64,000 bases of DNA from a virus (Duplodnaviria; Caudoviricetes). Where the stretch lies: positions 2,195 through 66,194 of IMG/VR virus record IMGVR_UViG_3300046460_000148, one strand, 5' to 3'. The notes beneath the pieces are model-generated. The model saw nothing but the letters and a program-made list of their open reading frames with translations, made no database searches and had not been told where the DNA came from. Of this stretch, positions 23,116-47,763 are shown in pieces (position 1 is the stretch's first letter; each line of letters opens with the position of its first letter). A program made the position numbers and the translations under genes.

Positions 23116-26100
23116 AAAATCAAAGCCCAAGATTGAGGTGACGCTCTACTACATGTCGGAGCACTTCGGCATCTGCCACGGGCCGCTTGATTTCATCTCC
23201 GAGATCAAGGTTTCCGAAAAGGTCGCCTGGACCGGCACGAAGGCCACACAGGGCGATATCACCATCAATGAACCGGAGCTGTTCGGCGGCGCCAAGAAAG
23301 AGGGCGGCGTCCAGGGCTCGGTGCATTACCTGCCGGGCAACTATACGCAGACCATCCCGGAAGCGATCGCGGCAAAGCATGGGCGCACGACGGCGACGAT
23401 GCCGGCCTATCGCGGCATCGCGTCGGCGTTCTTCTATAACGGGCCGGGCGGGGGAGGGTTTTACTGGTCCGCCAACTCGCCCTACCTGCCGCCCGTCTGG
23501 ATCAAGGCCGCGCGCGCCTCGGTGGCGCTGAGCGAGGAACACGCCCGCATCTGGCGCGGCGCGGAGCGCTCCACCCGGACGATCTCCAACATCAATGTCG
23601 GCTTCTTGGACACCGGCCGGAAGCTGTGGGACGTTTCCGGCTCCTATCTGGTGCACGCATCGACAGACCACACCCAGGTGATAATCGAAGACCTACGCAC
23701 GGGCTCGGTGCGCGCCACGATCAACCTCGGTTACACGCCGGTCTGGGTCTACATCAGCGAATCCGCAAGTCAGGTCCTGGTCCTCGCGATCGACGGCACG
23801 ATGCACGCCTACAACATGTTCGGGGGCGAAGTTACCTCGGTCGATACGCCGGACCCGACTTTCGGCGGGGTTGATACAGCCGGGAGCCTGACGGGGCCGC
23901 CGACCGAGATTGTCGTTGACGGCGCCACCTATCTGTTCTGGATGCGCTGGAATGACGTCGTCTGTTGTACATACTCGGGCGGCGGCTGGGGCTTTAACTG
24001 GTCCGGGCATCCGTGGGGCCTCTTCGGTGTCACCGGCGGGGTCATCGCGGCGGGACCTGACCACCTTGTTATCCGCATGCCGTTCGGCGGCTGCTATTAT
24101 GTGGACTGGTCACCGCTTGCCATTGGTTTCTTCGGTTTTACCAATATCGATTTCCTGGGGCTTCTCGGCTGGCACGTCTCGACATCTGACCCTATTCACA
24201 GCGTTTCATATGTCCCCGACACCGGCACGTGGTTTTTCACCATCGGCGGCGGATTTGACGCCACTCTCAATTCCGATTGCACTGCCGTCGTTGCACAAGG
24301 CGTTACCGGCGAATCATTAAGCACCGACACATCGCTTGCTCAGCCGGTTAAATCCCGGCGCATCCTGGACGGCGCGACCGCTGCCGCGTTCATCTCCTCG
24401 GCCGACGCCTATTTCGTTGATGTCACATCAGGAGACGTGATCGACAGCATCGCCTTTTCCGAGTTCGGTATAGCCAACGCGCCTACGCTGGACGCTGGCT
24501 GGTCCGAGGAAGAGCGCGCATTTGTCCTCAAGACCCCCACCGCCGCCTATGTGCTCTTTCTGCCGACCAATGCCTTTGACAGCAACCCGGCACACATCAT
24601 CTTCGACAGCCTGACGAACACCGACTGGGGCATGGGTTCGCCCACGACCGCCATTGACGTCGATAGCTTTCACAGCGCGGCAGCGGTGCTTTACGGCGAG
24701 CAGTTCGGTCTATCGATGATCTGGACGAAGCAATCCACCATCGAAAGCTTTATCGGCGAAGTGCTGGATCACATCGAGGCGGTGCTGTTCGTCAACCCGG
24801 CAACCGGTCTGCTGACCCTCAAGCTGATCCGCAATGATTACGACCCGGACGATTTGCCGATTTTTACTCCGGACAATTGCGTGGTCACCAGCTTCGGCCG
24901 GAAGCTGTGGGGTGAAACGATCAATGAGATCGTCGTCACCTTCACCAATCCGGCCAATGAAGAGGATCAGACGGTTATCGCTCAGGACCTCGCCAACATC
25001 GAGGCGCAAGGCGGCATCGTCTCCGACGGTCGCAATTACTACGGGGTGCGGGTCCGGTCGCTGGCCGCCGGTCTCGCTCAGCGTGACCTCCGGGCCGCCG
25101 CGACGCCGCTAGCCTCCTGTGACATCGAGGCCAACCGTGAGGCGTGGGATTTGCTGCCCGGCGGCGTGCTCAAAATCCATTCCCCTGATGACGGCGTGAA
25201 CAGCATCATCATGCGGATCGGACGAGTTGATTACGGCAAGCCGGGTGACCCCAAGGTTCGCGCCTCCCTCGTTGAAGACATCTTTTCGCTGCCGCTGGCC
25301 GATTACACCATCCCGCCGGACAGCGAATGGGAACCGGTGTCGGAAGAGCCGACGCCGGCCGCTGCCACGCTGGTCTTCACCCTGCCCTACTACATGATGG
25401 TCAATGAGGTTGACGCCATCGTCCTGCTGACCGGGATTGAATATCCGGAGACCTTCGCCGGAGTGCTTGCCGCCCAGACCGGCCAGGACACGGCGGAGTT
25501 CGAGCTTTTCGAAGCGGACGGCGATGACATCGGGACCAAGACGATCGTCAGCCGCGACGTGCTGGCGGCGGACATCGTCCCGGAAGTGGAAACCACGCTG
25601 CCGGCATTCCCGGACCGGACACAAGGCGACGCGCCGACGGTCGGCGGCATGATGCTGATCGAGGGCGAGGATGATACCGAAACCGAGCTTTGCCTGATCA
25701 CCGCCGGGAGCACGACCACGGGATGGACGATCACGCGCGGCGTGCTCGATACCGTTCCGCGTGCGTGGCCGGCCGGCACGCCGGTGTGGTTCATCGATGA
25801 GAACCTTGAGAACACCGACGACACCATCCGATCGGAAGCGGAGACCGTCGATTACAAGGTGCTGACGCGGACCTCGCTCGGCCTGCTGGACTTGGGCGCC
25901 GCTCCCATCATCTCCGCCACGCTTTCGGCCCGGCCGCATCTGCCGCTGCGGCCGGCTGACGTCAAGGTGGATGGCGATGACGGCTTCGCCGGCGTGGTTG
26001 ATGAACGCGGCGCTGACCCTGTTCCGGTCACCTGGGCAAACCGCAACCGGCTGACCGAGGACACGGTGGTGCTCGCCTGGGATGCCGGCGACGTAACACC

Positions 26101-26344
26101 CGAGGACGGCCAGACCACGCGCATTGACATCATCAACGGGTCTGGAACAGTGGTGTTCACGCATGATGATTTGCCCGGCACCAGCTTCGACATCCCGGCT
26201 GCATCGTTCGCCGGAGTAGCAACCGGCAGGATCAAGGTCAGCGCCAAGCGCGATGACCTCATTTCGCTACAAGGGTACGAGATCGCGGTGATGATCGACT
26301 CCGGCTACGGCGATGGTTACGGCTACAATTATGGAGGGGCCTAA
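23108..26344 (+). CDS. central tail/hub protein with inserted domain
   Basis: GICHGPLD, NPAHIIFDSLT, LKLIRNDY, ITRGVLDTVP. Confidence 0.85.
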   Translation: MGKKSKPKIEVTLYYMSEHFGICHGPLDFISEIKVSEKVAWTGTKATQGDITINEPELFGGAKKEGGVQGSVHYLPGNYTQTIPEAIAAKHGRTTATMPAYRGIASAFFYNGPGGGGFYWSANSPYLPPVWIKAARASVALSEEHARIWRGAERSTRTISNINVGFLDTGRKLWDVSGSYLVHASTDHTQVIIEDLRTGSVRATINLGYTPVWVYISESASQVLVLAIDGTMHAYNMFGGEVTSVDTPDPTFGGVDTAGSLTGPPTEIVVDGATYLFWMRWNDVVCCTYSGGGWGFNWSGHPWGLFGVTGGVIAAGPDHLVIRMPFGGCYYVDWSPLAIGFFGFTNIDFLGLLGWHVSTSDPIHSVSYVPDTGTWFFTIGGGFDATLNSDCTAVVAQGVTGESLSTDTSLAQPVKSRRILDGATAAAFISSADAYFVDVTSGDVIDSIAFSEFGIANAPTLDAGWSEEERAFVLKTPTAAYVLFLPTNAFDSNPAHIIFDSLTNTDWGMGSPTTAIDVDSFHSAAAVLYGEQFGLSMIWTKQSTIESFIGEVLDHIEAVLFVNPATGLLTLKLIRNDYDPDDLPIFTPDNCVVTSFGRKLWGETINEIVVTFTNPANEEDQTVIAQDLANIEAQGGIVSDGRNYYGVRVRSLAAGLAQRDLRAAATPLASCDIEANREAWDLLPGGVLKIHSPDDGVNSIIMRIGRVDYGKPGDPKVRASLVEDIFSLPLADYTIPPDSEWEPVSEEPTPAAATLVFTLPYYMMVNEVDAIVLLTGIEYPETFAGVLAAQTGQDTAEFELFEADGDDIGTKTIVSRDVLAADIVPEVETTLPAFPDRTQGDAPTVGGMMLIEGEDDTETELCLITAGSTTTGWTITRGVLDTVPRAWPAGTPVWFIDENLENTDDTIRSEAETVDYKVLTRTSLGLLDLGAAPIISATLSARPHLPLRPADVKVDGDDGFAGVVDERGADPVPVTWANRNRLTEDTVVLAWDAGDVTPEDGQTTRIDIINGSGTVVFTHDDLPGTSFDIPAASFAGVATGRIKVSAKRDDLISLQGYEIAVMIDSGYGDGYGYNYGGA

Positions 26345-27162
26345 TGGCTCAAAGAACGCTTCCCGGCATTGGCCTCACCGGCTTCTGGCCGCTTGGATAC
26401 GACGGCTGGAATACCGAGAATGACGTCAATCTCCGGCTCCTCTCCGCGCTTGTCCAGGCGCGCGCGATCAGCCGCACCACGGCGCTCCCCGGCTCCCCAA
26501 CCGATGGTGACATTTACATTGTCCCGGACGGTGCCGGCAGCAACCCCAATGAGATCGCCATCCGCGATAATGGTGCCTGGGTCTACGTCGTGCCCGAGGA
26601 AGGCTTCAGGTTCTATGTCGATGACGACAATGAAAACATTCAGTTCGACGGCGCGAATTGGATAGGATTTGCCGCCGGCCTTTCTGATGCGCCGAGTGAC
26701 GGCACGATTTACGGTCGAAAGGACGCGGCCTGGGAAGCGGTGCCGAGCGGTCTTTCCGATGCTCCCAGCGATGGCACGATCTATGGGCGGAAAGACGCCG
26801 CTTGGGAGGCAGTGCCGGACGGCCCGACGAGCATCGAGCTTTCACTCTTCGCCGCCGGCGAGCTGACTGCGACCGAATTGATTTTCCGGCATGAGGCGAC
26901 GCAAGCCTTCACCATCCCGGCCGGCATGACGGGCTCGCGCGGCTCTTCCGCAGTAGCGGCGACGGGAACACCGGCGCTATCGGTCAAGAAGAACGGCGCG
27001 TCAGTCGGGACCGCGACATGGTCCGCCGCCGGCACGACGGCGGCGCTGGCGATGGCGTCTCCCACGGCCTTCGCAATTGGTGACATCCTGTCTGTGACCG
27101 CTCCGGCTTCACCGGATGCAACGCTTGCCGATGTCTCGCTGTCCATCGTTGGAGATTTGTAA
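26344..27162 (+). CDS. tail fibre protein (DUF2793-like N-terminus, tandem foldon-like motifs)
   Basis: PGSPTDGDIYIVP...W; two copies of GLSDAPSDGTIYGRKDAAWEAVP. Confidence 0.7.
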   Translation: MAQRTLPGIGLTGFWPLGYDGWNTENDVNLRLLSALVQARAISRTTALPGSPTDGDIYIVPDGAGSNPNEIAIRDNGAWVYVVPEEGFRFYVDDDNENIQFDGANWIGFAAGLSDAPSDGTIYGRKDAAWEAVPSGLSDAPSDGTIYGRKDAAWEAVPDGPTSIELSLFAAGELTATELIFRHEATQAFTIPAGMTGSRGSSAVAATGTPALSVKKNGASVGTATWSAAGTTAALAMASPTAFAIGDILSVTAPASPDATLADVSLSIVGDL

Positions 27163-28151
27163 TGAGCATCCTTGCTGCCGCCACTTCGCGCGCCGATTTC
27201 TACACGGTGGGAACGACTGCCGCCATCACGACGGCGGCCAAGATCGCGCCCTACGCCAAAGAGGGCGTCTCCATCACGGGCGATACCAGCTACGCACGAA
27301 TCCTGTTTCCGTCGGCGTTGGCTGAAGGCTGGTTCCAGTTCTATGTCAATATCAATGCTACCGTTGCCGGCAGCACGACCGGGCAAATGTTTCGTCTCAA
27401 GAGCGGCGAAACCGGGCAAACACTATTCCAACTTGACTTCGATGCCGCTGCCGGCAACTCCCTTGAATACTGGAACGGTAGCGCCTTTGTCGAAGTCAGC
27501 GAAACGACCACTTTCAACATCGCCCGCTTCAAAATCGACGTCCAGTTTAAGATGGACAATTCAGCAGGCTATTTCCGGGTGTACGTGAACGACACACTCA
27601 TCCATGAGCTAACCGGAGATACGATTTTCACGGCGGCGACAACGCTGGACACGCTCGAACTCGCGTGTCCGAACAACGTGGGGCTCGGCAACGGTCAATA
27701 TGATTTCTCCGGCTTTATCCTCGCCGACGAGGACACCCGGTCGATGATCTTCCATCAGGGGCAGGCAACCGCCGATGGCGCGAATACGGCATGGACCGGG
27801 GTATATACCGACGTCACAAAGCTCGACCGAAACGACAGCACCTTCATCGAGTCCGGGACGGCGGCTCAGCTTGAAACATACGTCATGGATGACGTGCACA
27901 CTGATCTCGCGGCCTATGTCCCGCGCGCCGTCGTTCTCTCCACGCGCACCCGGCGCGGCGCGACGGGGCCGCAGAACATGCAAGGCGTCGTCCGGCAGGG
28001 CGGCAGCGACTTCACTACCTCGAACATCTCCGGCATCAACACGGCTTACGGCACCCGGCAGGCGGTGATGAATACCAATCCGGCCACCGGCGCGGCCTGG
28101 ACCATTGCCGAAGTCAACGCGGCTGAGTTCGGCGTGAAGGCGATCGCCTGA
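27162..28151 (+). CDS. tail fibre/receptor-binding-type virion protein
   Basis: Beta-rich; C-terminal NPATGAAWTIAEVNAAEFGV. Confidence 0.65.
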   Translation: MSILAAATSRADFYTVGTTAAITTAAKIAPYAKEGVSITGDTSYARILFPSALAEGWFQFYVNINATVAGSTTGQMFRLKSGETGQTLFQLDFDAAAGNSLEYWNGSAFVEVSETTTFNIARFKIDVQFKMDNSAGYFRVYVNDTLIHELTGDTIFTAATTLDTLELACPNNVGLGNGQYDFSGFILADEDTRSMIFHQGQATADGANTAWTGVYTDVTKLDRNDSTFIESGTAAQLETYVMDDVHTDLAAYVPRAVVLSTRTRRGATGPQNMQGVVRQGGSDFTTSNISGINTAYGTRQAVMNTNPATGAAWTIAEVNAAEFGVKAIA

Positions 28152-28152
28152 T

Positions 28153-29091
28153 ATGACATTATCCCCATCCCCGTTTACCTTCGTTGGCGCAAGTAACGCG
28201 GCAGAAGTAGCGAGCGGCAATCTGACGCTTGTCACCACCGGCGTCACAATTCAGACCGGTGACCTAGTTATCGCCTGTATTGCATATCGTGACACGCCCG
28301 CCTTCTCGGCTCCGGACGCGAGCTGGTCGATCGTTGAACAGCAATCAAGCGGCAACGTCGCGACGGTAGCCAGCACGGCTATTGCGTCCGGCGTGATGAT
28401 GGTCTGCCAATCGTGGCCCGCGTCTGCGCCCAGCCTCGTCTTCGGGCGCACCGGCGGGGATGTCGCCCGAGGCGTGCTGCTGGTCTATCGAGGGCAGAAG
28501 GCGGCGGGCTCGCTCAACGTGCACAGCTCGTTCACGACGGCGGCGGCGTCAACGACATCGTCCACTCCATCGATCACGACGACGACTGACGAGGAGTTGA
28601 TCGTCGCAATGGTTGCGGGCGGCGTCAACAGCGGGTCGTCGGCTTTTAGGGCGGTAACCGATCCGACAACGCAGAGCGGCACGACCACCGACACTACCGA
28701 ATACGGGGTGGAGGGCGCGTGGCTTGAACGCCATGACAGCACGACGAACACCGGGGCCAGGTGTTCGATCGGCGTCGCCTCTGCGGTTAAGTCGGCCGCC
28801 GGGGCAACCGGGGAAATACGGTCCACCCAGACCCAGACGTCCAGGTTCGTGACGATCGCCGCGTCGTTCAAGAACGCCGGGCAGGATCGTTCGACGGTCC
28901 AGGCTTCGAAGGCGTCCCGCTATGACGTGGTTGGGCCGAACGATGACGGGGTCAGCGTCTCCAAGGTATCCCGCTATGACGTCTTCATGGCTGTCGGCGT
29001 AGTGTCCATCACCAAGCTCTCTCGATATGACGTGCTTGTTCCAGGCGAGAGCGCGGTCAAACGGCGCGTCCAAAACATCAACTATCACTAA
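28153..29091 (+). CDS. Thr/Ser-rich virion protein
   Basis: GDLVIACI, TPSITTT; three C-terminal (S/T)KxSRYDV repeats. Confidence 0.6.
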   Translation: MTLSPSPFTFVGASNAAEVASGNLTLVTTGVTIQTGDLVIACIAYRDTPAFSAPDASWSIVEQQSSGNVATVASTAIASGVMMVCQSWPASAPSLVFGRTGGDVARGVLLVYRGQKAAGSLNVHSSFTTAAASTTSSTPSITTTTDEELIVAMVAGGVNSGSSAFRAVTDPTTQSGTTTDTTEYGVEGAWLERHDSTTNTGARCSIGVASAVKSAAGATGEIRSTQTQTSRFVTIAASFKNAGQDRSTVQASKASRYDVVGPNDDGVSVSKVSRYDVFMAVGVVSITKLSRYDVLVPGESAVKRRVQNINYH

Positions 29092-29114
29092 TCCCAAACA
29101 TCAGGAGCGCCACG

Positions 29115-29975
29115 ATGGCGGCCAAGAATTTTGACGACTCCCTCGCCAGGGTGCTTGTCCATGAGGGCGGCTATGTCGATGATCCGAGAGACCCCGGCGG
29201 GGCGACAAATCAGGGGATCACACAGCGGACTTACGACGCCTACCGGCGGAGCAAGAAGCAGTCCACCCGCGCCGTCCGGCTCATGACGCCGCCGGAGCGC
29301 AATGAGATTTACCGGCGGCAATACTGGGACGCGATCCAAGGCGACACGTTGCCGGACGGAATCGATTATGTCCTGTTTGACGGCGCCGTGCATAGCGGTC
29401 CGAAGCAGTCGATCAAATGGCTACAGCGCGCGCTCGGCCCTTCCTACCACGGGGCGATTGATGGCGTGATCGGCCTCGCCACCTTCGCGGCGCTTGAGTC
29501 GACCACGAACTATTCCCAGCTCATCGACCGGATTTGCGATCGGCGGCTGGCCTTTCTCCGGACGCTCGACGGCTGGGCGCCCTTCGGCAATGGCTGGAAG
29601 CGGCGCGTGGCCAATGTCCGGGCGGTCGCCAAGGCTGACGCCCTGGATATCAAGAATCCGTCCACGGTCCTTGCGGTTCCGCTGCCCGGCGGCGAGGCAA
29701 AGGCGAGGATAGAGGATGCGCGCCGGGCTCCATCGAAAGCGCCAGGAGACGCGGCAACCGGTGGCGGACTCGGCGGTCTCGGGATTGCCGGCGTCCTGCA
29801 AGGGCTTCAAGAGCAACTGACGCCATACAGCATCGCCGGCGGCTGGATCGGAAGGCTCGTGATTATCCTGGCCGTCAGCGGCGCGCTCCTCGCTATCGGC
29901 GGCATCGCCTACCGCTGGTATGCAAAGCGGCAGCAAGCCAAGATCGCTGACGCACTCGACGTGGTGCCGGCATGA
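29115..29975 (+). CDS. endolysin, glycoside hydrolase family 108, with C-terminal membrane segments
   Basis: HEGGYVDDPRDPGGATNQGIT, FDGAVHSG, FGNGWKRRV. Confidence 0.92.
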   Translation: MAAKNFDDSLARVLVHEGGYVDDPRDPGGATNQGITQRTYDAYRRSKKQSTRAVRLMTPPERNEIYRRQYWDAIQGDTLPDGIDYVLFDGAVHSGPKQSIKWLQRALGPSYHGAIDGVIGLATFAALESTTNYSQLIDRICDRRLAFLRTLDGWAPFGNGWKRRVANVRAVAKADALDIKNPSTVLAVPLPGGEAKARIEDARRAPSKAPGDAATGGGLGGLGIAGVLQGLQEQLTPYSIAGGWIGRLVIILAVSGALLAIGGIAYRWYAKRQQAKIADALDVVPA

Positions 29976-30238
29976 TCGCCTTTCTCGCAAGCCCGATCGG
30001 CAAGATTGCCGCCGCCATCATCGTCGCCGCCGTGCTGGTCGGCGCCGGCTATATCAAAGGCCGATCAGATGGCAAACTTCGGCAGATGAAAGATACCGTT
30101 GAGGCGGTTCAAAATCGCGGGGTGATTAACAATGAAGTCAGCAAGCTTGGCGATTATAGCCTCTGCCTTCGCCTTGGTGGGATGCCAGACGACTGCGCTC
30201 AATTGCGCGGGATGGACGCCGCCCCCCAAGGCAAATAA
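29972..30238 (+). CDS. i-spanin (Rz-like)
   Basis: N-terminal TM segment; overlaps a lipoprotein ORF. Confidence 0.65.
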   Translation: MIAFLASPIGKIAAAIIVAAVLVGAGYIKGRSDGKLRQMKDTVEAVQNRGVINNEVSKLGDYSLCLRLGGMPDDCAQLRGMDAAPQGK

Positions 30239-30329
30239 CCCGGTTAGGCTGGTCCAGGAGGAACAGGGTCTTTCCCGCTGGATCATCGCGACCGATCAGT
30301 TCGGAAAGAAACAAGGTTGCTGGAAATAG
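30132..30329 (+). CDS. o-spanin (Rz1-like lipoprotein)
   Basis: Lipobox LVGC, Pro-rich, +1 frame overlap with i-spanin. Confidence 0.7.
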   Translation: MKSASLAIIASAFALVGCQTTALNCAGWTPPPKANNPVRLVQEEQGLSRWIIATDQFGKKQGCWK

Positions 30330-30340
30330 GAGAAATTCCG

Positions 30341-30544
30341 ATGCCGCTTTTGCAGATGCTTTTGGTGATCTTGGTCATCTCGCTTGTCGCCGCCCTTGTT
30401 GCCGGCGTGCTTGTCTTCCTGATCCGGAGCGCGCCGTTCCTGCCTGAACCTTATAAGGCGTGGGCAGTATGGGCGGTCATCGCGATCGTCGTGCTGGTCG
30501 CGCTGATCAAGATTTTGCCGGCAGTGGGAGTGCTCACCTATTGA
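30341..30544 (+). CDS. small two-TM membrane protein (holin candidate)
   Basis: AGGAG RBS; two hydrophobic segments. Confidence 0.55.
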   Translation: MPLLQMLLVILVISLVAALVAGVLVFLIRSAPFLPEPYKAWAVWAVIAIVVLVALIKILPAVGVLTY

Positions 30545-31008
30545 ACGTGCGCGCCGCTCTTGCCATTGGGTGGCGCTGGTTTGCCCACGCATCCGGCGTC
30601 ATCCTCATCGCTGGGTCGATCTCCTATGGCGTCCTGCATCTCTTCTCGATCAATGGCCCGGTCGTTACCGTAACCGAGGGGCCGGGCTACATTTCCACCG
30701 TCGTGCCCTACAGAGGGGTCCTGACCTACAAGATTTCGACCCAGCGCCACGCCTCCTGTCCCGGCCGGGTGATCGCCAGCTTTATCAATCAGGGCGGGGG
30801 TCCGCCGGTTACCGTCCTCTTGAGCCGGCCGATCCTTTCCACCGAGATCAAGCAGACCGACGACGCCACTATTTATCTTCAATTGCCTGAGAACGTTTAC
30901 CCCGGCCGCTGGTTATTCCGGTCAGTGGTGGACAGCACATGTCCGACCTATTCGCGCCAGGATGTAACCGCACAGTTCCCGTTCGAGGTGACCCATCATG
31001 TGGACTGA
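30541..31008 (+). CDS. membrane-anchored hypothetical protein
   Basis: N-terminal TM, beta-rich domain with two Cys. Confidence 0.55.
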   Translation: MNVRAALAIGWRWFAHASGVILIAGSISYGVLHLFSINGPVVTVTEGPGYISTVVPYRGVLTYKISTQRHASCPGRVIASFINQGGGPPVTVLLSRPILSTEIKQTDDATIYLQLPENVYPGRWLFRSVVDSTCPTYSRQDVTAQFPFEVTHHVD

Positions 31009-31372
31009 CATCCTCAATTTCTTCGGCGCCGAACGCTATTCACAGCACTCCATCTGCCTGACCAATGACCCCGTCATGATCTTCCTCTATGTGCTGTCTG
31101 ATCTTTCCACCTTCGCGTCCTATATCGCGATCGGCATTTCACTGTTGCTCGTAGCGCGCGTTCCGCCCATTCGCGTGAGGCCAACGATGCGGCTCTTGTT
31201 CGGGTCTTTCATCTTCCTATGTGGTCTTTCTCATCTGACGTCCGTGATTACCCTCTTCACCGGCGTCTATCGTCTCGACATCATGATCAGGGCCGCGATG
31301 GCCGCCGTCTCGGTCATGACTGCAATTGCCACGGTCAACGACTACTATCGTCAACAGCCGAAAGTCACGTGA
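30998..31372 (+). CDS. stand-alone ETR1-type ethylene-binding (Cu) transmembrane domain protein
   Basis: SDLSTFASYIAIG and FGSFIFLCGLSHL match ETR1 SDFFIAIAYFSIP and FGAFIVLCGATHL; three TM helices. Confidence 0.8.
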   Translation: MWTDILNFFGAERYSQHSICLTNDPVMIFLYVLSDLSTFASYIAIGISLLLVARVPPIRVRPTMRLLFGSFIFLCGLSHLTSVITLFTGVYRLDIMIRAAMAAVSVMTAIATVNDYYRQQPKVT

Positions 31373-31373
31373 C

Positions 31374-31574
31374 ATGGATGCGGAGGCGTTCTTGACTGTA
31401 ACGGCGACATTCCTCATCGCGATCAGTTGCGGCGTCATTTCATATCGGGTTTCCATCCGGCAAGCGAAACAGGAGATCGACGCGGCCTTCCAGCAGCACA
31501 TCGAGCGGATGCACCAAGAGCATCGACTGTTCGTTGAGGAGGTTGTGGAGACGATTGAGCAACCGAAGGACTGA
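31374..31574 (+). CDS. small membrane protein
   Basis: One TM plus charged tail. Confidence 0.5.
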   Translation: MDAEAFLTVTATFLIAISCGVISYRVSIRQAKQEIDAAFQQHIERMHQEHRLFVEEVVETIEQPKD

Positions 31575-31577
31575 GAT

Positions 31578-31901
31578 GTGGACCTCGCACCTTTTCTCAC
31601 GTTCGGCGGGGCTGTCCTCACTGCTGTGTTCACCGTCATCGGTACTATCTATGTCGCCCGCTCCCGGACGAAGACTGATCTCGGCGCTTCCATCACCAGC
31701 GGCTTCCGGGAACTGACCGATCAGCTCCAGGAGGAGCGCAGCCAATTGAGCGAGATCATCAGGCGGCAGCGGGAGGAGTTGGCGAACGTCGAAAAGCTGA
31801 CGGACAGGCAGGAGCACACAATTCGGCGAATGCGCCGCCGTGTGGCCCTCCTGGAAAGCAAACTGGCAAAGGCCGGGCTGGATATACCGCCCGGCGACTG
31901 A
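31578..31901 (+). CDS. TM + coiled-coil protein (lysis-region, holin/antiholin-like)
   Basis: N-terminal TM, coiled coil. Confidence 0.55.
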   Translation: MDLAPFLTFGGAVLTAVFTVIGTIYVARSRTKTDLGASITSGFRELTDQLQEERSQLSEIIRRQREELANVEKLTDRQEHTIRRMRRRVALLESKLAKAGLDIPPGD

Positions 31902-31910
31902 GCGCGTTCC

Positions 31911-32249
31911 TTAGCGAAATTCGGGCGGCTTGCAAACATTGCCCGGAGCGTCAGCGAACATCGGCGCGATCTGCCCCGGCGTGTAGCCGGCGAGGCCGCA
32001 CCCGATCGCCGTGAGATTGAATGTCAGCTCCGGGTGATTGCGCGCGAACTCCAGGAAGCGCTCGACATGCATCCGAATGTTATCCAGGTGCAGCGTCCGA
32101 ATATAATGGTCCTTCGTCGGTATGCCGTAAGACCTCCCTTGAAGGCCCTCGCCCTGGCCGTAAATCGCCCCGTGATTTTTGAGCGCAAACAGCGCCGCGC
32201 CCTTCCCGTGCCGGCCGGCGAGATTGCTTCCGAAAACGAAGATATTCAA
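31911..32249 (-). CDS. A1S_2505-like phage non-structural protein
   Basis: IFVFGSNLAGRHGKGAA, SYGIPTK, TAIGCGLAGY. Confidence 0.75.
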   Translation of the reverse strand: MNIFVFGSNLAGRHGKGAALFALKNHGAIYGQGEGLQGRSYGIPTKDHYIRTLHLDNIRMHVERFLEFARNHPELTFNLTAIGCGLAGYTPGQIAPMFADAPGNVCKPPEFR

Positions 32250-32512
32250 AGCGGGTCCGCTCCTTCTCTGACGGCGATCTCAATCCACGCAGAGATCGCC
32301 GCGCGGCTCGTCAGGCCGTCGATCGATCTGCGTAAGTCCCCGATCTTCTCACCTTGCCAGAGCGGCTCGGCAATCCACTGCCGGAGGTAGGCGCGCATCG
32401 CCGCAATGTGTTCGGGCGACATGTCCCCGCCGCTCAGATAAGCCTTGACGGCGGGCCGCAAGACGCCGCTTGTTTCATTCATCCAATATCCGGGCACACG
32501 CACGATCTTCAT
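32246..32512 (-). CDS. hypothetical protein
   Basis: ORF coupled to downstream gene. Confidence 0.6.
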   Translation of the reverse strand: MKIVRVPGYWMNETSGVLRPAVKAYLSGGDMSPEHIAAMRAYLRQWIAEPLWQGEKIGDLRRSIDGLTSRAAISAWIEIAVREGADPL

Positions 32513-32582
32513 ATCCTGATGCTTCCACGGTTCCCTCCCGGCGCGGGCTGGAACTCCTGACCAACGGCGCCCGCGCCCACCT

Positions 32583-32612
32583 GCCCCGCCCTAACCGGTG
32601 GGGCCTTTTTTT
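32583..32612 (+). terminator. Rho-independent terminator
   Basis: GCCCCGCC / GGTGGGGC stem + T7. Confidence 0.6.
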
Positions 32613-32645
32613 ATGCGACAAAATTCGGGTCGTGTCTGCCCGGTT

Positions 32646-32916
32646 TGTGCCATCCTTTGTGCCAGTGAGCCGCCGGGACCGAAAGGGAAAGCCCGGAAAA
32701 CATGGGAAATGGACGGCACAAACATGGCACAAAGGCCCCGGAGTAACCGGAGCCTTTTTCTTTTCAAGCCGCTGTATTTCTTAGGGAATTTGATGGTAGC
32801 GGAGGAGGGATTTGAACCCCCGACACAAGGATTATGATTCCCGTGTCAGCGTTGTTTTTATTAAGTTTTTTGTCATTTTGTGCCAGTGTTGTGCCATCCG
32901 TGCCGGCGCTGTGCCG
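32646..32916. repeat. integrase arm-type sites (TGTGCCA and variants)
   Basis: TGTGCCA at 32646, 32658, 32879, 32890; inverted at 32725; variants at 32714, 32899, 32910, on both sides of the core. Confidence 0.7.
32794..32841 (-). mobile_element. attP core = 3' half of tRNA-Met(CAT)
   Basis: Reverse strand reads GGAATCATAATCCTTGTGTCGGGGGTTCAAATCCCTCCTCCGCTACCA (anticodon loop, T-arm, CCA); next to integrase. Confidence 0.88.
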
Positions 32917-32924
32917 CTGCCCCT

Positions 32925-34166
32925 TTACCCTAGCAATGACCGTTCAGCGGCGGCCAGCTCGTCGGCATCATCGCCGCGCGGGAACAAATGCCCGTAGCAG
33001 TCGAGCGTCATTTGAATACTCGAATGCCCCAGCCGTTCTTGCACTGACTTGACCGGCAGCTCCAGACCGCCGTCAACCTTCCGGTTGATGCACCACGAGG
33101 CGAAGAAGTGCCGGAGCGAATGAAGGCCGCTGTACTTCGCCAGCATGATCGGTTTGCCGTGCTTGTCTAGCTCCCCCGAGGGAACCGAGACCCCTGCCCT
33201 GATTCCAGCCGGGATCAGTCCCCGGTTGACAATATTGGCATGGCTTTCAAGCTTCCCCTTGCCGTTCGGAAAAACGTAATGAAGTTCCATGATGGGCTTG
33301 CCGGCTTCATCAACCCGCCCCGTATCTCGGCGCGGGCAGACTAACCGCCATTCCCGAAGCGTGTTTGTCACGATAGGTGAAACCGGAATGGTGCGCTCGC
33401 CGGCTTCGGATTTCGGACGGCCAATCTTGCCGTATTCATCGGCGCGCTGGCAGACGCTGATCGATCGTCCCTCCAGATCGACATCCTCCCACCGCAAACC
33501 GCGTAGCTCCGATGAGCGCATACCGCTGAAAATTGCGGTGATCAGCAGCGGACGCCAATGGCCCATGCCGTCGAGCGCGTTGATGATCGCGCGGACCTCG
33601 GCCGGCATCGGGATGTGAACCCCTATCTTGAGTTTGCCCTTGCTGCGGCGCTCCGCCCGCTTTTCTTTCCCACCCCGGCGCTGACGCATGTCCCTGACCG
33701 GATTCCGGGTCGCCAACCCGCGTTCAACCGCATCCCCCAAAATGCCGCCGAGTGACACGAGCACCTTTTTGATCATCGCGGCAGAGCGACCATCCGCCCT
33801 GAGTTTGTCTTCGAACTCCCGGATCAAAGGCACCGATAGCTTTGACACCAGCGTGTCGCCGATGAACGCCTCGATGTGGAATTTTAGATGGCGCCGGCGC
33901 TGGTCCAGGGTGCTCCGCTCAAGACCCTCCCCCTCACCGGTCGCAATCCACAGCTCAGCGGCTTTTCGGACGTTAACGCTGTCGCGGTCAGCAACGTGGG
34001 TGCCTTCACGAACCTCAATCTTCGCCTTCTCCACGAAAGCGTCCGCATCCTTTTTCCGGCCGAACGACTGACGATGCCGGACGCCCTTGGCGTCAATATA
34101 ATCGGCCATCCACGATTCGCCTTCCGACCCGTCTCTGTTCGTCCATTTGCGCTTGCGTACCGACAT
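32925..34166 (-). CDS. int: tyrosine integrase
   Basis: SGMRSSELRGL, PKS, HSLRHFFAS, LGHSSIQMTLDCYGH. Confidence 0.95.
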   Translation of the reverse strand: MSVRKRKWTNRDGSEGESWMADYIDAKGVRHRQSFGRKKDADAFVEKAKIEVREGTHVADRDSVNVRKAAELWIATGEGEGLERSTLDQRRRHLKFHIEAFIGDTLVSKLSVPLIREFEDKLRADGRSAAMIKKVLVSLGGILGDAVERGLATRNPVRDMRQRRGGKEKRAERRSKGKLKIGVHIPMPAEVRAIINALDGMGHWRPLLITAIFSGMRSSELRGLRWEDVDLEGRSISVCQRADEYGKIGRPKSEAGERTIPVSPIVTNTLREWRLVCPRRDTGRVDEAGKPIMELHYVFPNGKGKLESHANIVNRGLIPAGIRAGVSVPSGELDKHGKPIMLAKYSGLHSLRHFFASWCINRKVDGGLELPVKSVQERLGHSSIQMTLDCYGHLFPRGDDADELAAAERSLLG

Positions 34167-34168
34167 TG

Positions 34169-34402
34169 TCAGTGACCTCCCCCAAGCTGGTCTAGCCGAT
34201 CGGCAATCCACATTTTGATCAGCGCCTGCCGGGTTATCCCCCGGCGCTGCGATTCCTGATCGAGCCCTTCGACCATCCATGTCGTGAAATCGACGTTGAC
34301 ACGCTTGACCTCAAGGTTCGGCCGGCGTCCCTTTGTCCAATCCACCTCGCCGCTGACGTCCTCTCCGGCATCAAAGCGCCGGTCAAATTCAGTTGCTTTC
34401 AT
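34169..34402 (-). CDS. brnA: BrnA/CopG-like antitoxin (RHH)
   Basis: EFDRRFDAGEDV, KRVNVDF, ITRQALIKMWI. Confidence 0.85.
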   Translation of the reverse strand: MKATEFDRRFDAGEDVSGEVDWTKGRRPNLEVKRVNVDFTTWMVEGLDQESQRRGITRQALIKMWIADRLDQLGGGH

Positions 34403-34652
34403 AATGCGCTACCTCCTGTTGTCTGGCCCGGCGCACCGAAATAATCCGTATCTTTGCGCCGCGATGGGTGATGACCGCCGTCCAGTGTTTCCCGGCGATC
34501 ATGCCGATAGCGAGGAAGCGCGGTTCATCTTCGGTTTTTGCAGGGAATTCTAAGAGCCGACTATCGAGCCACAGCGCCTGTGCCTCGACGAAACCAATGC
34601 CGTGTTTGGCCTTGTTGCTGTCACTCTTCGCCGGGTCAAATTCGAAATCCAT
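34389..34652 (-). CDS. brnT: BrnT-family toxin
   Basis: FEFDPAKSDSNKAKHGIGF, EPRFLAIG, IRIISVRRAR. Confidence 0.9.
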   Translation of the reverse strand: MDFEFDPAKSDSNKAKHGIGFVEAQALWLDSRLLEFPAKTEDEPRFLAIGMIAGKHWTAVITHRGAKIRIISVRRARQQEVAHYESN

Positions 34653-34713
34653 AAAATAAGTATAGGTATAAAAACGGTATAAAGCAAGCGCACGCGGAGT
34701 AGTGGAAAAGGTG

Positions 34714-34920
34714 TTAGTTCAGGAAGTGCTCGCGCAGCTTCATTTTCGAGGCGACCCATCGATTGCCGATTTTTTTGGCCGGCAGCTCCCCGCGTTCAAG
34801 CATGTTGTAAGTGACCTTCTCGCCGCGACCGATCTCGCGGGCGATTTCTTGAGCGCCCCACAGGAGGTCATCGCTGAGACCGGCCGGCGGCGCTGGATCA
34901 GGTTTTAGATGCATCGTCAT
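34714..34920 (-). CDS. excisionase-like HTH protein
   Basis: LLWGAQEIAREIG...GELPAKKIGNRW; upstream of int. Confidence 0.75.
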   Translation of the reverse strand: MTMHLKPDPAPPAGLSDDLLWGAQEIAREIGRGEKVTYNMLERGELPAKKIGNRWVASKMKLREHFLN

Positions 34921-34953
34921 TGTAACGGCTTCCTTGTTGCTGAACTGCATTTC

Positions 34954-35510
34954 ACCTTGCTTCGCCGTGCCCTGCTTTGCCCCGCCCCGCCCAGCCGTGC
35001 CTAACCGTGCCACGTCATCGCCGTTCGAAAATTCACAAACCTCAATCCTTGCCCTGCCCTGCTTCGCCGCTCCACGCCGAGCCTTTCCCGGCTGTGCCGC
35101 ACCTAGCTCGGCCCTGCCCTGCTTCGAAAATTCAAAAACTCAAATCCTTGCTTTGCCTCGCCTCGCCGGGCCTTGCTCGACCTAACCCCGCCAAGCTACG
35201 CCCTGCTATGCCCCGCCTCGCCTTGCCTCACCTAGCCAATCCTCGCAGTGCCCGGCTTTGCCCGGCCATGCGATGCCCCGCCATATTCAAAATCGACAAA
35301 CCTCAATCCTTGCATTGCCGCTCCGCGCCTTGCCCCGCCATGCATCGCTGAGCCCCGCCTCACCTTGCCTAGCCTAGCCTAGCCGTGCCCTGCCGCGCCT
35401 TGCCATGCCGTTCGAAAATTCACAAAACGCAATCCTTGCCCTGCCCCGCCACGCCTAGCCTAGCTCTGCCCTGCCGAGCCCCACCTAGCCACGCCAGCTA
35501 TTTCGAATCC
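34954..35510 (-). repeat. array of five GGY-NN pentamer tracts separated by a conserved ~28-nt linker (candidate guide RNA array)
   Basis: Linker TTCGAAAATTCACAAACCTCAATCCTTG-like at 35024, 35123, 35286, 35411; tracts of about 12, 15, 27, 20 and 12 units. Confidence 0.88.
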
Positions 35511-46367: not shown

Positions 46368-46945
46368 TGCTCATTCTCGGCCTCGACCAAAGCATCACCC
46401 GGACAGGCTGGGCGCTCTATCGCTTCCCCGGCGACGAGCGGCACATGAGGTGCGGCTCGTTCTCCTGTTCGGATGAGGCCGACGCCGACGCCAAGTGTGA
46501 GCGCTTCGCCCGCGAGATCAAGCGGCTGGTCGGACCCCAGGAAACGCGGCCGGATTTCATCTGCTGGGAGCGGGCCAAACGGCAAATCTCCGCCTATCCC
46601 AAAAAGCCGAACGCCGATCTGCTCGGCCTGGGCGGACAGGACGTTTGGACGGTCAACGCCGATCAGCTCCTCCTCCCGGAAATTCAAGGCATCATCCGGG
46701 CGGCAACCGTCTTCTATCGCGTGCCGCACGAATCGGTGTCACCGGCGACATGGCGGGCTGCGATATACGGCAAGGGCGGCGGCAAACTATCGCGCGTCGA
46801 TGCGAAGGCGCGGGCCAAGGAATACTGCCAGGCCCTCGGTATCAAGTTCAGCGGCGACGATCAGGCGGAAGCCGCTTGCATCGCCCGTTGGGCCGCGACG
46901 TGCTCTATCGCCTTCCGGATGCTTATGGCGAGGGCGGCGGCATGA
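46364..46945 (+). CDS. RuvC-like Holliday junction resolvase
   Basis: ILGLDQSITRTGWA, ICWE, VSPATWR, DDQAEA. Confidence 0.75.
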   Translation: MMLILGLDQSITRTGWALYRFPGDERHMRCGSFSCSDEADADAKCERFAREIKRLVGPQETRPDFICWERAKRQISAYPKKPNADLLGLGGQDVWTVNADQLLLPEIQGIIRAATVFYRVPHESVSPATWRAAIYGKGGGKLSRVDAKARAKEYCQALGIKFSGDDQAEAACIARWAATCSIAFRMLMARAAA

Positions 46946-47763
46946 TCCAGTTGCGCGTCCTGTCCCTCGGTGCCGGCGTCCAATCAACCACGATGGCGCT
47001 CATGGCCGCGCACGGCGAAATAGGCCCGATGCCGGATGCCGCGATCTTTGCGGACACCGGAGCAGAACCGCAGCCGGTCTATGATCACCTCACGTGGCTG
47101 ATGTCGGCCAACGTGCTTCCCTTCCCCGTCCATGTCGTCAGCGCCGGGAACCTCCGGGACATCCTTACGGGCCGCGCCCACTGGAAGGGCGGCAATGACG
47201 GCCGGCCGCCGTTCTACGTTGTCACCGACAAAGGTGACGCCGGCACGCTCAATCGACAATGCACCCGGCATTTCAAGATTGATCCGATCCGCCGGAAGGT
47301 GCGTGAGCTGCTCGGCCTGACGCACGGGCAGCGCGGACCCAAGACCGCAGCGGCGGAGCAATGGATTGGCATCAGCCTTGACGAAGCCACCCGCATGAAG
47401 CCGTCGCGTGACCGCTACATCGAAAGCCGGTGGCCGCTGATCGAAAAGCGGATGACGCGCCGGGACTGCCTGAAATGGCTTGCCGCTCATGACTATCCGC
47501 TGCCGGCAAAATCGGCCTGTACTTTCTGCCCATTCCGCAATGACGTCGGCTGGCGCGACCTCCGCAACAATGACCCGGTGTCATTCGCCGACGCCGTCGC
47601 GATCGACAAGGTCATCCGGGACGGGATGCCCGGCGTAAATCGTTCCCAAGTATTTATCCACCGATCGCTGAAGCCGCTCGATGAGGTCGATCTATCGACC
47701 GCCGAGGAGCGCGGCCAACTGAACCTTTTCATCAATGAGTGTGAAGGGATGTGTGGCGTATGA
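46942..47763 (+). CDS. PP-loop/PAPS-reductase-like protein
   Basis: SLGAGVQST, IFADTGAE, RQCT, WIGISLDE, KSACTFCPF, CEGMCGV. Confidence 0.75.
   Translation: MIQLRVLSLGAGVQSTTMALMAAHGEIGPMPDAAIFADTGAEPQPVYDHLTWLMSANVLPFPVHVVSAGNLRDILTGRAHWKGGNDGRPPFYVVTDKGDAGTLNRQCTRHFKIDPIRRKVRELLGLTHGQRGPKTAAAEQWIGISLDEATRMKPSRDRYIESRWPLIEKRMTRRDCLKWLAAHDYPLPAKSACTFCPFRNDVGWRDLRNNDPVSFADAVAIDKVIRDGMPGVNRSQVFIHRSLKPLDEVDLSTAEERGQLNLFINECEGMCGV

Follow-up and report, generated by a model that had tools for sequence, protein, structure and literature searches.

A stand-alone ethylene-receptor-type domain in a putative membrane module beside the lysis genes of a predicted temperate phage

Background

Why should a bacteriophage carry the copper- and ethylene-binding part of a receptor, cut free of any output domain, next to the genes with which it lyses its host? 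The question is raised by a 124-aa protein encoded in a 64,000-nt stretch of viral DNA (hereafter the window), positions 2,195 to 66,194 of IMG/VR virus record IMGVR_UViG_3300046460_000148 (Duplodnaviria; Caudoviricetes), a virus contig of 66,194 bp that is rated complete. An earlier note, made from the letters of the sequence, had described the protein as a free-standing ethylene-binding domain (EBD) of the type found in the receptor ETR1. We have followed up that description computationally, and find a selected, phage-borne domain that travels with two small membrane proteins and recurs beside endolysin genes.

The EBD is the input of plant, cyanobacterial and proteobacterial receptors, and the residues of its Cu(I)/ethylene site normally lie in a domain fused to GAF or kinase outputs. 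In published work, Asp25, Cys65, His69 and Lys91 of ETR1 are named, with D25, C65 and H69 implicated in Cu(I) binding (PMC10266040), I35, P36 and I62 are named as essential (PMC6586836), and seven residues are required in ETR1 for ethylene binding (PMC11819568). Residues 1-130 of AzoEtr1 and SynEtr1 bind ethylene in yeast (PMC11819568; PMC6682694), the Asp25-Lys91 pair of ETR1 couples binding to helix 3, a K91R mutant still bound ethylene, and plant ethylene receptors act as dimers (PMC10266040). Literature searches that combined ethylene-binding domain or receptor with phage, prophage, bacteriophage or viruses, or used the Pfam name, returned no phage or lysis-cassette EBD; two reviews of non-plant receptors that are cited in PMC11819568 lie outside this scope and may mention output-less bacterial EBDs. 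The only link to viruses found was a remark on giant viruses and brown algae in PMC7700396.

Results

A true ETR1-type domain of 124 residues

The gene in question is the following:

30998..31372, plus strand: stand-alone EBD (ETR1_N), 124 aa, characterized by its open reading frame (ORF), Pfam family PF25487, an AlphaFold2 model, hydropathy, conservation and the ratio of nonsynonymous to synonymous substitution rates (dN/dS).

The ATG at 30998 is the first start codon past the upstream in-frame stop, with a Shine-Dalgarno-like GAGGTG motif 7 nt 5' of it, and the frame closes with a TGA at 31370-31372. Residues 27-113 matched positions 2-88 of the 97 in the Pfam ETR1_N profile (PF25487) with 65.4 bits (E 5.8e-18) against a cut-off of 27, and the search repeated on the whole record gave E 2.8e-19. 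Alignment to profile hidden Markov models (HMMs) of ethylene-binding domains had been put forward in the earlier note as a check on its call, and the protein passed it. ETR1 numbering was converted to EBD numbering with an offset of +10 through helix 2, on the grounds of published ETR1 residue numbers, the column match in 71 fused bacterial relatives and the column of the Lys91 equivalent; the latter is position 98 (offset +7 in helix 3), an Arg in the window EBD. The translation contains D35, Y42 (whose ETR1 counterpart we take to be Tyr32), I45, G46, I72, C75 and H79. Six of the seven ETR1 ethylene-binding residues are kept in this way, and G46 replaces the Pro36 equivalent. By alignment, C75 and H79 take the places of Cys65 and His69, the Cu(I) ligands. 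H17-x-x-C20 and P25 are also present in the N-terminal part. The earlier note had read off the ETR1-type residues at an offset of +10 (D35, Y42, I45, I72, C75 and H79), the replacement of P36 by G46 and an HxxC...P motif of bacterial type, and on each of these points the Pfam match and the translation bear it out.

The AlphaFold2 model (predicted local distance difference test score, pLDDT, 82.7) has two short N-terminal helices, which hold H17-x-x-C20, and long helices at 25-51, 62-88 and 91-118; hydropathy gives three transmembrane (TM) segments. Because the loop at 52-65 is Arg-rich, the positive-inside rule suggests that the protein probably lies N-out in the inner membrane, with its N-terminus in the periplasm. 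No solved structure of the domain was found in the PDB by sequence (no match below E 0.07), nor of the fold by Foldseek at E 0.001 or better; the Foldseek matches there were generic three-helix membrane subunits, all at E >0.6. In BFVD, the sole structural neighbour of the model is an unnamed viral protein of 289 aa, A0A8E4UZR7 (E 1.8e-3, TM-score 0.74 over 111 columns, 25% identity); it may be a further EBD protein of viral origin that carries an additional domain. The window EBD has no output domain, as the earlier note had stated: the ORF ends at residue 124, and the next gene, with its ATG at 31374 in another frame, encodes a single-pass protein with no Pfam match reaching cut-off.

Comparison with the loci of the closest relatives, which we label L001 to L004, indicates that the EBD gene is under purifying selection. 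Its dN/dS is 0.06-0.08 against L002-L004, and 0.25 against the near-identical L001. Identity to L002-L004 is 79-85% for the EBD and 62-70% for the endolysin, and the i-spanin reaches 38-43% in L002 and L004; by this comparison no protein of the cassette is better conserved than the EBD. We considered a chance ORF or an artefact of TM composition as its origin, and both are ruled out by the HMM score, the functional-residue columns and the dN/dS. On sequence grounds, membership of the ethylene-binding-domain (ETR1_N) family is secure.

A clade of short EBDs that keeps the copper site

A search for homologues of near length gave 92 proteins, nearly all of 117-144 aa. Alignment A1 holds 90 of them, and the clade counts below refer to these 90. 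G10, H17, C20, D24, F71, I72, C75, G89 and Y91 are invariant, so that C75, I72, H17 and C20 each stand at 90/90; H79 follows at 89/90, Y42 at 88/90, I45 at 83/90 and D35 at 81/90, and at the start of helix 3 R92 is kept in 87 and D94 in 85. The earlier note had named lack of conservation of the Cys/His among phage homologues as grounds against its call, and these counts show the pair to be conserved. The phage clade has kept the copper site and most of the pocket, has exchanged the helix prolines at positions 46 and 89 for glycine, and has gained invariant motifs of its own: G10 and D24 near the N-terminus, and G89-x-Y-R-L-D where helix 3 begins. By the predicted topology these clade-specific motifs probably face the periplasm. 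C-terminal tails in the clade are short, at a median of 10 aa, and carry a median net charge of +0.5.

Most cellular relatives are built differently. A profile search of 1.84 billion representatives found 7061 at E <=0.001 (18 at E <=1e-30), and a genome scan found 237, of which the best 80 were kept and are the basis of the genome-locus counts. Among these best 80 of 237, ORF length is 236-925 aa in 69 and below 220 aa in 11, which accords with the statement in the earlier note that the domain is normally fused; on viral contigs, 14 of 15 relatives are shorter than 220 aa. The 71 fused bacterial relatives are close to uniform in the ETR1-critical columns (D 70, Y 71, I 71, P 67, I 71, C 71, H 71), and their position 98 is K in 67 and R in 3 (basic in 70/71). 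When homologues were sought among longer proteins, one match was returned, a 1128-aa kinase; the fused relatives counted here were drawn from the genome scan.

In a tree of 242 domain rows and 137 columns, built by a quick search and weak in its deep branches, the window falls in a set of 61 rows with a Shimodaira-Hasegawa-like approximate likelihood ratio test (SH-aLRT) value of 96; 59 of these are short (<220 aa, the window included) and two have 223-237 aa. Nearly all members of a wider, 71-tip clade are short as well. Two further clades of short EBDs lie apart, one of L009, L010, L011 and L013 (support 99) and one of L026, L058, L076 and two representatives (support 95). By this tree, the window EBD belongs to a phage-borne clade of short (~120-140 aa) proteins. 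No cultured member was found: tblastn against 50,697 phage records gave no match for the window EBD or for its partners p155 and p107 (below), nor for the EBDs of L008 and L014.

The separate viral clade has features of its own. At L009 (7401-8502), and also in L010, the short EBD follows an RcGTA-like tail protein, with two PAS-domain ORFs ~1 kb downstream of the EBD; the L009/L010 clade has His in place of D35 and Val at the position equivalent to Lys91.

Two single-pass partners

Two neighbouring genes recur with the EBD:

30541..31008, plus strand: p155, a 155-aa single-pass protein with a beta-sandwich (homologues, alignment A2, AlphaFold2 model).
31578..31901, plus strand: p107, a single-pass protein with a coiled coil (phrog_2658, alignment A3).

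Twelve clade loci were examined with 3.5 kb on each side (the window, L001-L008 and L016-L018), and phage genes surround the EBD in all twelve. A p107-like gene lies downstream of the EBD in 11 (the window, L001-L007 and L016-L018), and the L008 EBD has a coiled coil at its own C-terminal end. A p155-like gene lies upstream in 10 of the 12: the window, L001-L004, L006, L007, L018, L016 with an internal stop and L017 as a 50-aa remnant. The more distant EBD of L014 has a p155 analogue in front of it. By gene order, then, the EBD travels in a three-gene membrane module of p155, EBD and p107; in the synteny survey that the earlier note had proposed, both the module and the phage setting recur.

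p155 consists of a TM helix (~3-34) and a ~115-aa sandwich of eight strands (pLDDT of the AlphaFold2 model 85.6), with S-C-P-G (72-75) and C134-P135 invariant, and its stop overlaps the EBD start by 11 nt. Fold searches gave only generic immunoglobulin/fibronectin type III-like sandwich matches, with Z up to 8.5, and no cupredoxin or known copper chaperone stood out among them. Its language-model clusters are mostly viral; among named clusters LydB comes nearest, at 0.87, which falls short of the 0.9 line and is a lead only. In p107 a TM helix (3-21) is followed by Arg/Lys and a ~75-aa coiled coil. The protein matches phrog_2658, labelled 'hol-like', at E 3.4e-8, as do the L017 and L018 copies the same PHROG, and in alignment A3 (11 loci) G42, F43, L46 and P104 are invariant. 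The sandwich of p155 is probably periplasmic and the coiled coil of p107 probably cytoplasmic. In PADLOC and NCBIfam neither the EBD nor p155 had a match, and p107 picked up only coiled-coil noise; the language-model atlas likewise offered nothing usable for p107. A complex prediction for EBD and p155 from A1 and A2 scored 0.00 and has no weight either way.

Two relatives deserve mention in their own right. In a Bosea prophage (L016, 5486-5992) the p155-like gene has an internal stop codon and the EBD is intact. P0143, a 237-aa protein from one ENA contig of 1239 bp, has an EBD that continues, in one frame, into a fourth TM helix and a coiled coil like that of p107; this p107-like half shares 30.5% identity with p107 across 118 aa (E 2.6e-7 against a small database). 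P0143 may be a natural EBD-p107 fusion or a frame error, and is taken as a hint only.

Two further small membrane genes sit in the same row:

30338..30544, plus strand: a protein of 68-75 aa with two TM segments, its gene lying between those of the spanins and p155.
31374..31574, plus strand: p66, a single-pass protein of 66 aa with a charged helical tail, starting 1 nt past the EBD stop.

The two-TM protein is absent from L002 and L004 and is therefore not a conserved part of the module. p66 is conserved only in the closest phages, L001-L004; it has a weak FtsL-like match under cut-off.

Linkage to endolysin genes

Upstream of these genes lies the lysis cassette:

29115..29975, plus strand: endolysin with GH108, PG_binding_3 and a C-terminal TM helix at residues 248-266 (Pfam; phrog_315, E 1.3e-48).
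29972-30238, plus strand: i-spanin-like protein, 88 aa.
30132-30329, plus strand: o-spanin-like lipoprotein, 65 aa, lipobox L-V-G-C, overlapping the i-spanin gene.

The spanin pair is called from phrog_12535 and a weak Rz-like spanin match, and its gene order equals that of the annotated i- and o-spanins of phage Milano. The placing of the EBD gene after the spanins, among small membrane genes, is confirmed by this map (endolysin 29115-29975, spanins 29972-30329). The EBD starts 1.0 kb past the endolysin on the same strand, and from endolysin through p107 the genes overlap or lie 1-3 nt apart.

An endolysin gene lies within 2 kb of the EBD in 10 of the 12 clade loci, or in 6 of 8 lineages when the window and L001-L004 are counted as one. 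The endolysins belong to three families: GH108 (window group and L008), GH19 (L006 and L016) and the PF11860 muramidases (L005 and L018). In L008 and L014 the EBD is upstream of the endolysin, and the L014 EBD stops at the point where a GH108 endolysin starts. The gene maps support the view that linkage to lysis genes recurs across unrelated phage backbones. The suggestion in the earlier note of a tie between this gene and lysis or host signalling holds up as far as genomic linkage goes; its functional side is argued conditionally in the Discussion.

The TM helix of the window endolysin (248-266) has a weak match to the holin family Phage_holin_10 (E 0.02), and endolysins of this type may be membrane-tethered or self-exporting. 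No PHROG-annotated holin was found among the 97 window ORFs.

Downstream of the late genes, one feature bears on transcription:

32583..32604, plus strand: intrinsic-terminator-like hairpin of 8 pairs, 7 of them G-C, with a T run; the only strong one downstream of the plus-strand late genes.

Terminator-like sites numbered 7 against 7.9 expected by chance, and this one is singled out for its strength only. A scan for the sigma-70-type consensus, the only promoter type covered, found no sigma-70-like promoter in 26000-35000. From this layout (overlapping genes, no promoter found, a terminator-like hairpin at 32583-32604) we infer that the EBD is part of a late transcription unit.

The phage, its host and its habitat

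The wider map rests on PHROG matches over the 97 window ORFs, together with Pfam and PHROG searches:

4713: terminase.
6421: head/protease.
9570: portal.
16027: major tail.
17081: tape measure.
Up to 29091: tail proteins.
31911-32512, minus strand: two opposite-strand genes, between the late region and the integrase.
32925-34280, minus strand: integrase.

Beyond the integrase come a toxin-antitoxin pair and then recombination, repressor and replication genes. By its gene map this is a temperate siphovirus, in which the EBD module forms the end of the late region and adjoins the two opposite-strand genes, the putative attP region and the integrase.

The two opposite-strand genes converge on the late operon, with 9 nt between the p107 stop and the stop of the first, and one of them encodes an A1S_2505-family phage non-structural protein (NCBIfam E 3.9e-46; phrog_2072); judged by where they lie and how they are oriented, they are better candidates than the EBD module for expression in the lysogen. 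In the gap between late region and integrase, an 18-nt weak match to the 3' end of a transfer-messenger RNA (32805-32822, minus strand, E 0.31) could be the core of a putative attP; ARAGORN found no tRNA in the window. The toxin-antitoxin-like pair adjoins the integrase on the minus strand (34169-34652) and includes an 87-aa ORF matching phrog_4399, 'ribonuclease toxin of AT system' (E 9.3e-19). The phage further carries two PAPS-reductase-like genes, at 34-1026 (phrog_2302, E 3.1e-62) and 46645-47763 (phrog_424, E 5.6e-41), and several DNA methyltransferase-like genes (13650, 44155), which together suggest DNA modification functions.

The nearest named homologues of both EBD and p155 are from Rhizobium ruizarguesonis and R. 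leguminosarum, and full-length comparison puts the endolysin at ~50% identity to its counterparts in Rhizobium and Agrobacterium phages. The window DNA is present in one rhizosphere sequencing run, which may be its source, and a root metagenome run contains 46% of its sampled words; none of the sequencing runs matching the window DNA was RNA, and runs that share only a small part of the DNA were set aside as habitat evidence. A plant-associated host, as the earlier note had supposed, is supported by these homologues, phage relatives and sample types.

Discussion

What might such a domain do beside lysis genes? We hypothesize, with a probability of roughly 0.42, that the EBD serves, by way of Cu(I), as sensor or gate in a membrane device of three proteins that tunes lysis. 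The hypothesis is built on the conservation of the Cu ligand pair, the H-x-x-C, the outer-face motifs and the two partner genes, along with the recurrent place in the lysis cassettes of unrelated phages. The EBD would hold Cu(I) through C75 and H79 and serve as the sensor in a device split among membrane proteins, which sets when or how the host lyses. Its state would pass within the membrane to the single-pass partners p155 and p107, and not to a kinase, and the device would act like an antiholin or a holin partner. What is sensed could be ethylene, some other small Cu(I) ligand, or the copper or redox state. Copper binding, topology, ligand, late expression, contact among the three proteins and the effect on lysis are all things that we infer.

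Two sets of known systems are useful for comparison. Like ETR1, SynEtr1 and AzoEtr1, the EBD is predicted to be a three-helix membrane domain in which the helix-2 Cys/His pair, like the Asp, Tyr and Ile residues of helices 1-2, occupies the same columns, and it shares the N-terminal H-x-x-C...P motif with the bacterial receptors. Unlike ETR1-type receptors, it has no PAS, GAF, kinase or GGDEF output, has Gly for the essential Pro36 and for a second helix-start Pro (position 89), has, in the window, Arg at the Lys91 equivalent, a position that varies across the phage clade, carries the clade's own motifs G10, D24 and G89-x-Y-R-L-D, probably on the outer face, and is encoded by phages beside lysis genes. 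The second set is the lysis-timing regulators T4 RI, P1 LydB and P2 LysA, small membrane proteins of lysis cassettes that are dispensable for lysis itself; T4 RI is a sensor that delays lysis. The EBD resembles them in being a small membrane protein of a lysis cassette not needed for lysis itself, but is not related to them in sequence or fold, the LydB score of p155 being the only hint of a tie, and we know of no metal- or gas-binding domain in any known lysis-timing regulator.

Cellular short EBDs offer a further contrast. Those of L058 and L076 are likewise stand-alone (145-147 aa) with a full Cu site, but they form a separate clade (SH-aLRT 95), keep the Pro at position 46, and adjoin ORFs of 583-804 aa with kinase-like PHROG matches, not p155, p107 or an endolysin. 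The short EBDs abut these large kinase-like ORFs at L058 5962-8803 and L076 546-2728, and the arrangements look like split two-piece receptors.

Several observations weigh against a lysis sensor, some of them against one for ethylene in particular. Position 46 in A1 is Gly in 86 of 90 proteins and Pro in none; position 98 is R or K in 46 and T, V, L or another residue in 44; and D35 is changed in some viral copies, to G, Y and N in L005-L007 and to H in L009-L011 and L013. Tight ethylene binding is doubtful on account of these three changes. Nor, as judged from the sequence, is the status of a working ethylene receptor secure: the protein lacks an output and differs from ETR1 at one of the seven binding residues, and constraint on the coupling residue is relaxed in the clade. 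The EBD tail is short, with a median charge of +0.5, unlike that of typical holins. Two related lytic phages, Milano of Agrobacterium and RHph_I1_23 of Rhizobium, have the same endolysin type and none of the module, so the module appears dispensable for lysis as such; Milano has annotated i- and o-spanins and no annotated holin. The linkage also has gaps, with no endolysin within 3.5 kb in L017 and only a tail-lysozyme-domain protein nearby in L007. Lastly, the promoter scan covered sigma-70-type consensus sites only, and the attP-proximal end of the late region is a common place for lysogenic-conversion genes too.

This last point leads to an alternative that we consider unlikely, namely lysogenic conversion: the EBD would be made in the lysogen, where it would give a copper- or ethylene-related trait, or would pair with a fused receptor of the host and blunt its ethylene response in the rhizosphere. 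The position at the end of the late region, beside opposite-strand genes, attP region and integrase, suits such a role, as does the rhizosphere or root sample type (the best-matching run may be the source). Two of three host genomes with prophage copies hold a long EBD frame with which a short one might pair (Methylobacterium, 552 aa; Chelatococcus, 509 aa), and plant receptors are dimeric according to PMC10266040. However, the third host genome, that of Bosea, has the prophage EBD copy only and so offers no fused partner. The stretch from the tail and lysis genes to the EBD has neither room for a promoter nor a promoter-like site, starts and stops overlapping; the place beside endolysins is kept in different backbones, upstream of the endolysin as well (L008, L014); and a decoy role leaves the two conserved single-pass partners unexplained.

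It is rather more unlikely, in our estimate, that the EBD fold was recruited as a holin or structural part of the hole, with the copper/ligand site a leftover that senses nothing. Class I holins have three TM segments, N-out and C-in, and a protein of ~120 aa with three TM segments that is N-out/C-in by the positive-inside rule has this layout. The EBD is a small membrane protein (124 aa) on the same strand as a gapless lysis cassette, the window has no annotated holin, the EBD of L014 lies directly in front of the endolysin, and L005 and L018 need some holin because their endolysins have no TM segment. A mere hole-former, though, would not be expected to keep its Cu/ligand pocket residues invariant or nearly so across the clade, or to be more conserved than endolysin and spanins. 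The tail is short and its charge inconsistent, and the p107-like protein (phrog_2658, 'hol-like') is an equally good candidate; there is also no holin-family match in Pfam, PHROGs or NCBIfam, although the diversity of holins keeps this from being decisive.

A pure copper-handling role, in which the EBD is a membrane Cu(I) sink or relay that guards late infection from periplasmic copper, for example, with neither ligand sensing nor a part in lysis, could draw on C75/H79 and the invariant second motif H17-x-x-C20, probably on the periplasmic side, and on the implication of D25, C65 and H69 of ETR1 in Cu(I) binding (PMC10266040), but is very unlikely, for one or two Cu sites per 124 aa make a poor sink, no copper-transport or chaperone gene lies nearby, p155 gives generic sandwich matches with no cupredoxin or chaperone standing out, and the endolysin linkage is left unexplained.

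Conclusions

The proposed lysis-tuning sensor has a specific and more daring form, in which temperate phages of root bacteria read plant ethylene, or a related small molecule, through a captured, output-less Cu(I) sensor and its two partners, and time lysis by it. We regard this form as decidedly unlikely; if it were true, a virus would be listening to a plant hormone through a split receptor. A natural stand-alone EBD of 124 aa is an attractive minimal target for structure and binding studies, since no solved structure was found in the PDB by sequence or Foldseek. A phage clade in which the copper site is under strong selection, the output is dropped and two membrane partners come along suggests that this domain may signal without a kinase, and hints that lysis may be tied to a chemical cue.

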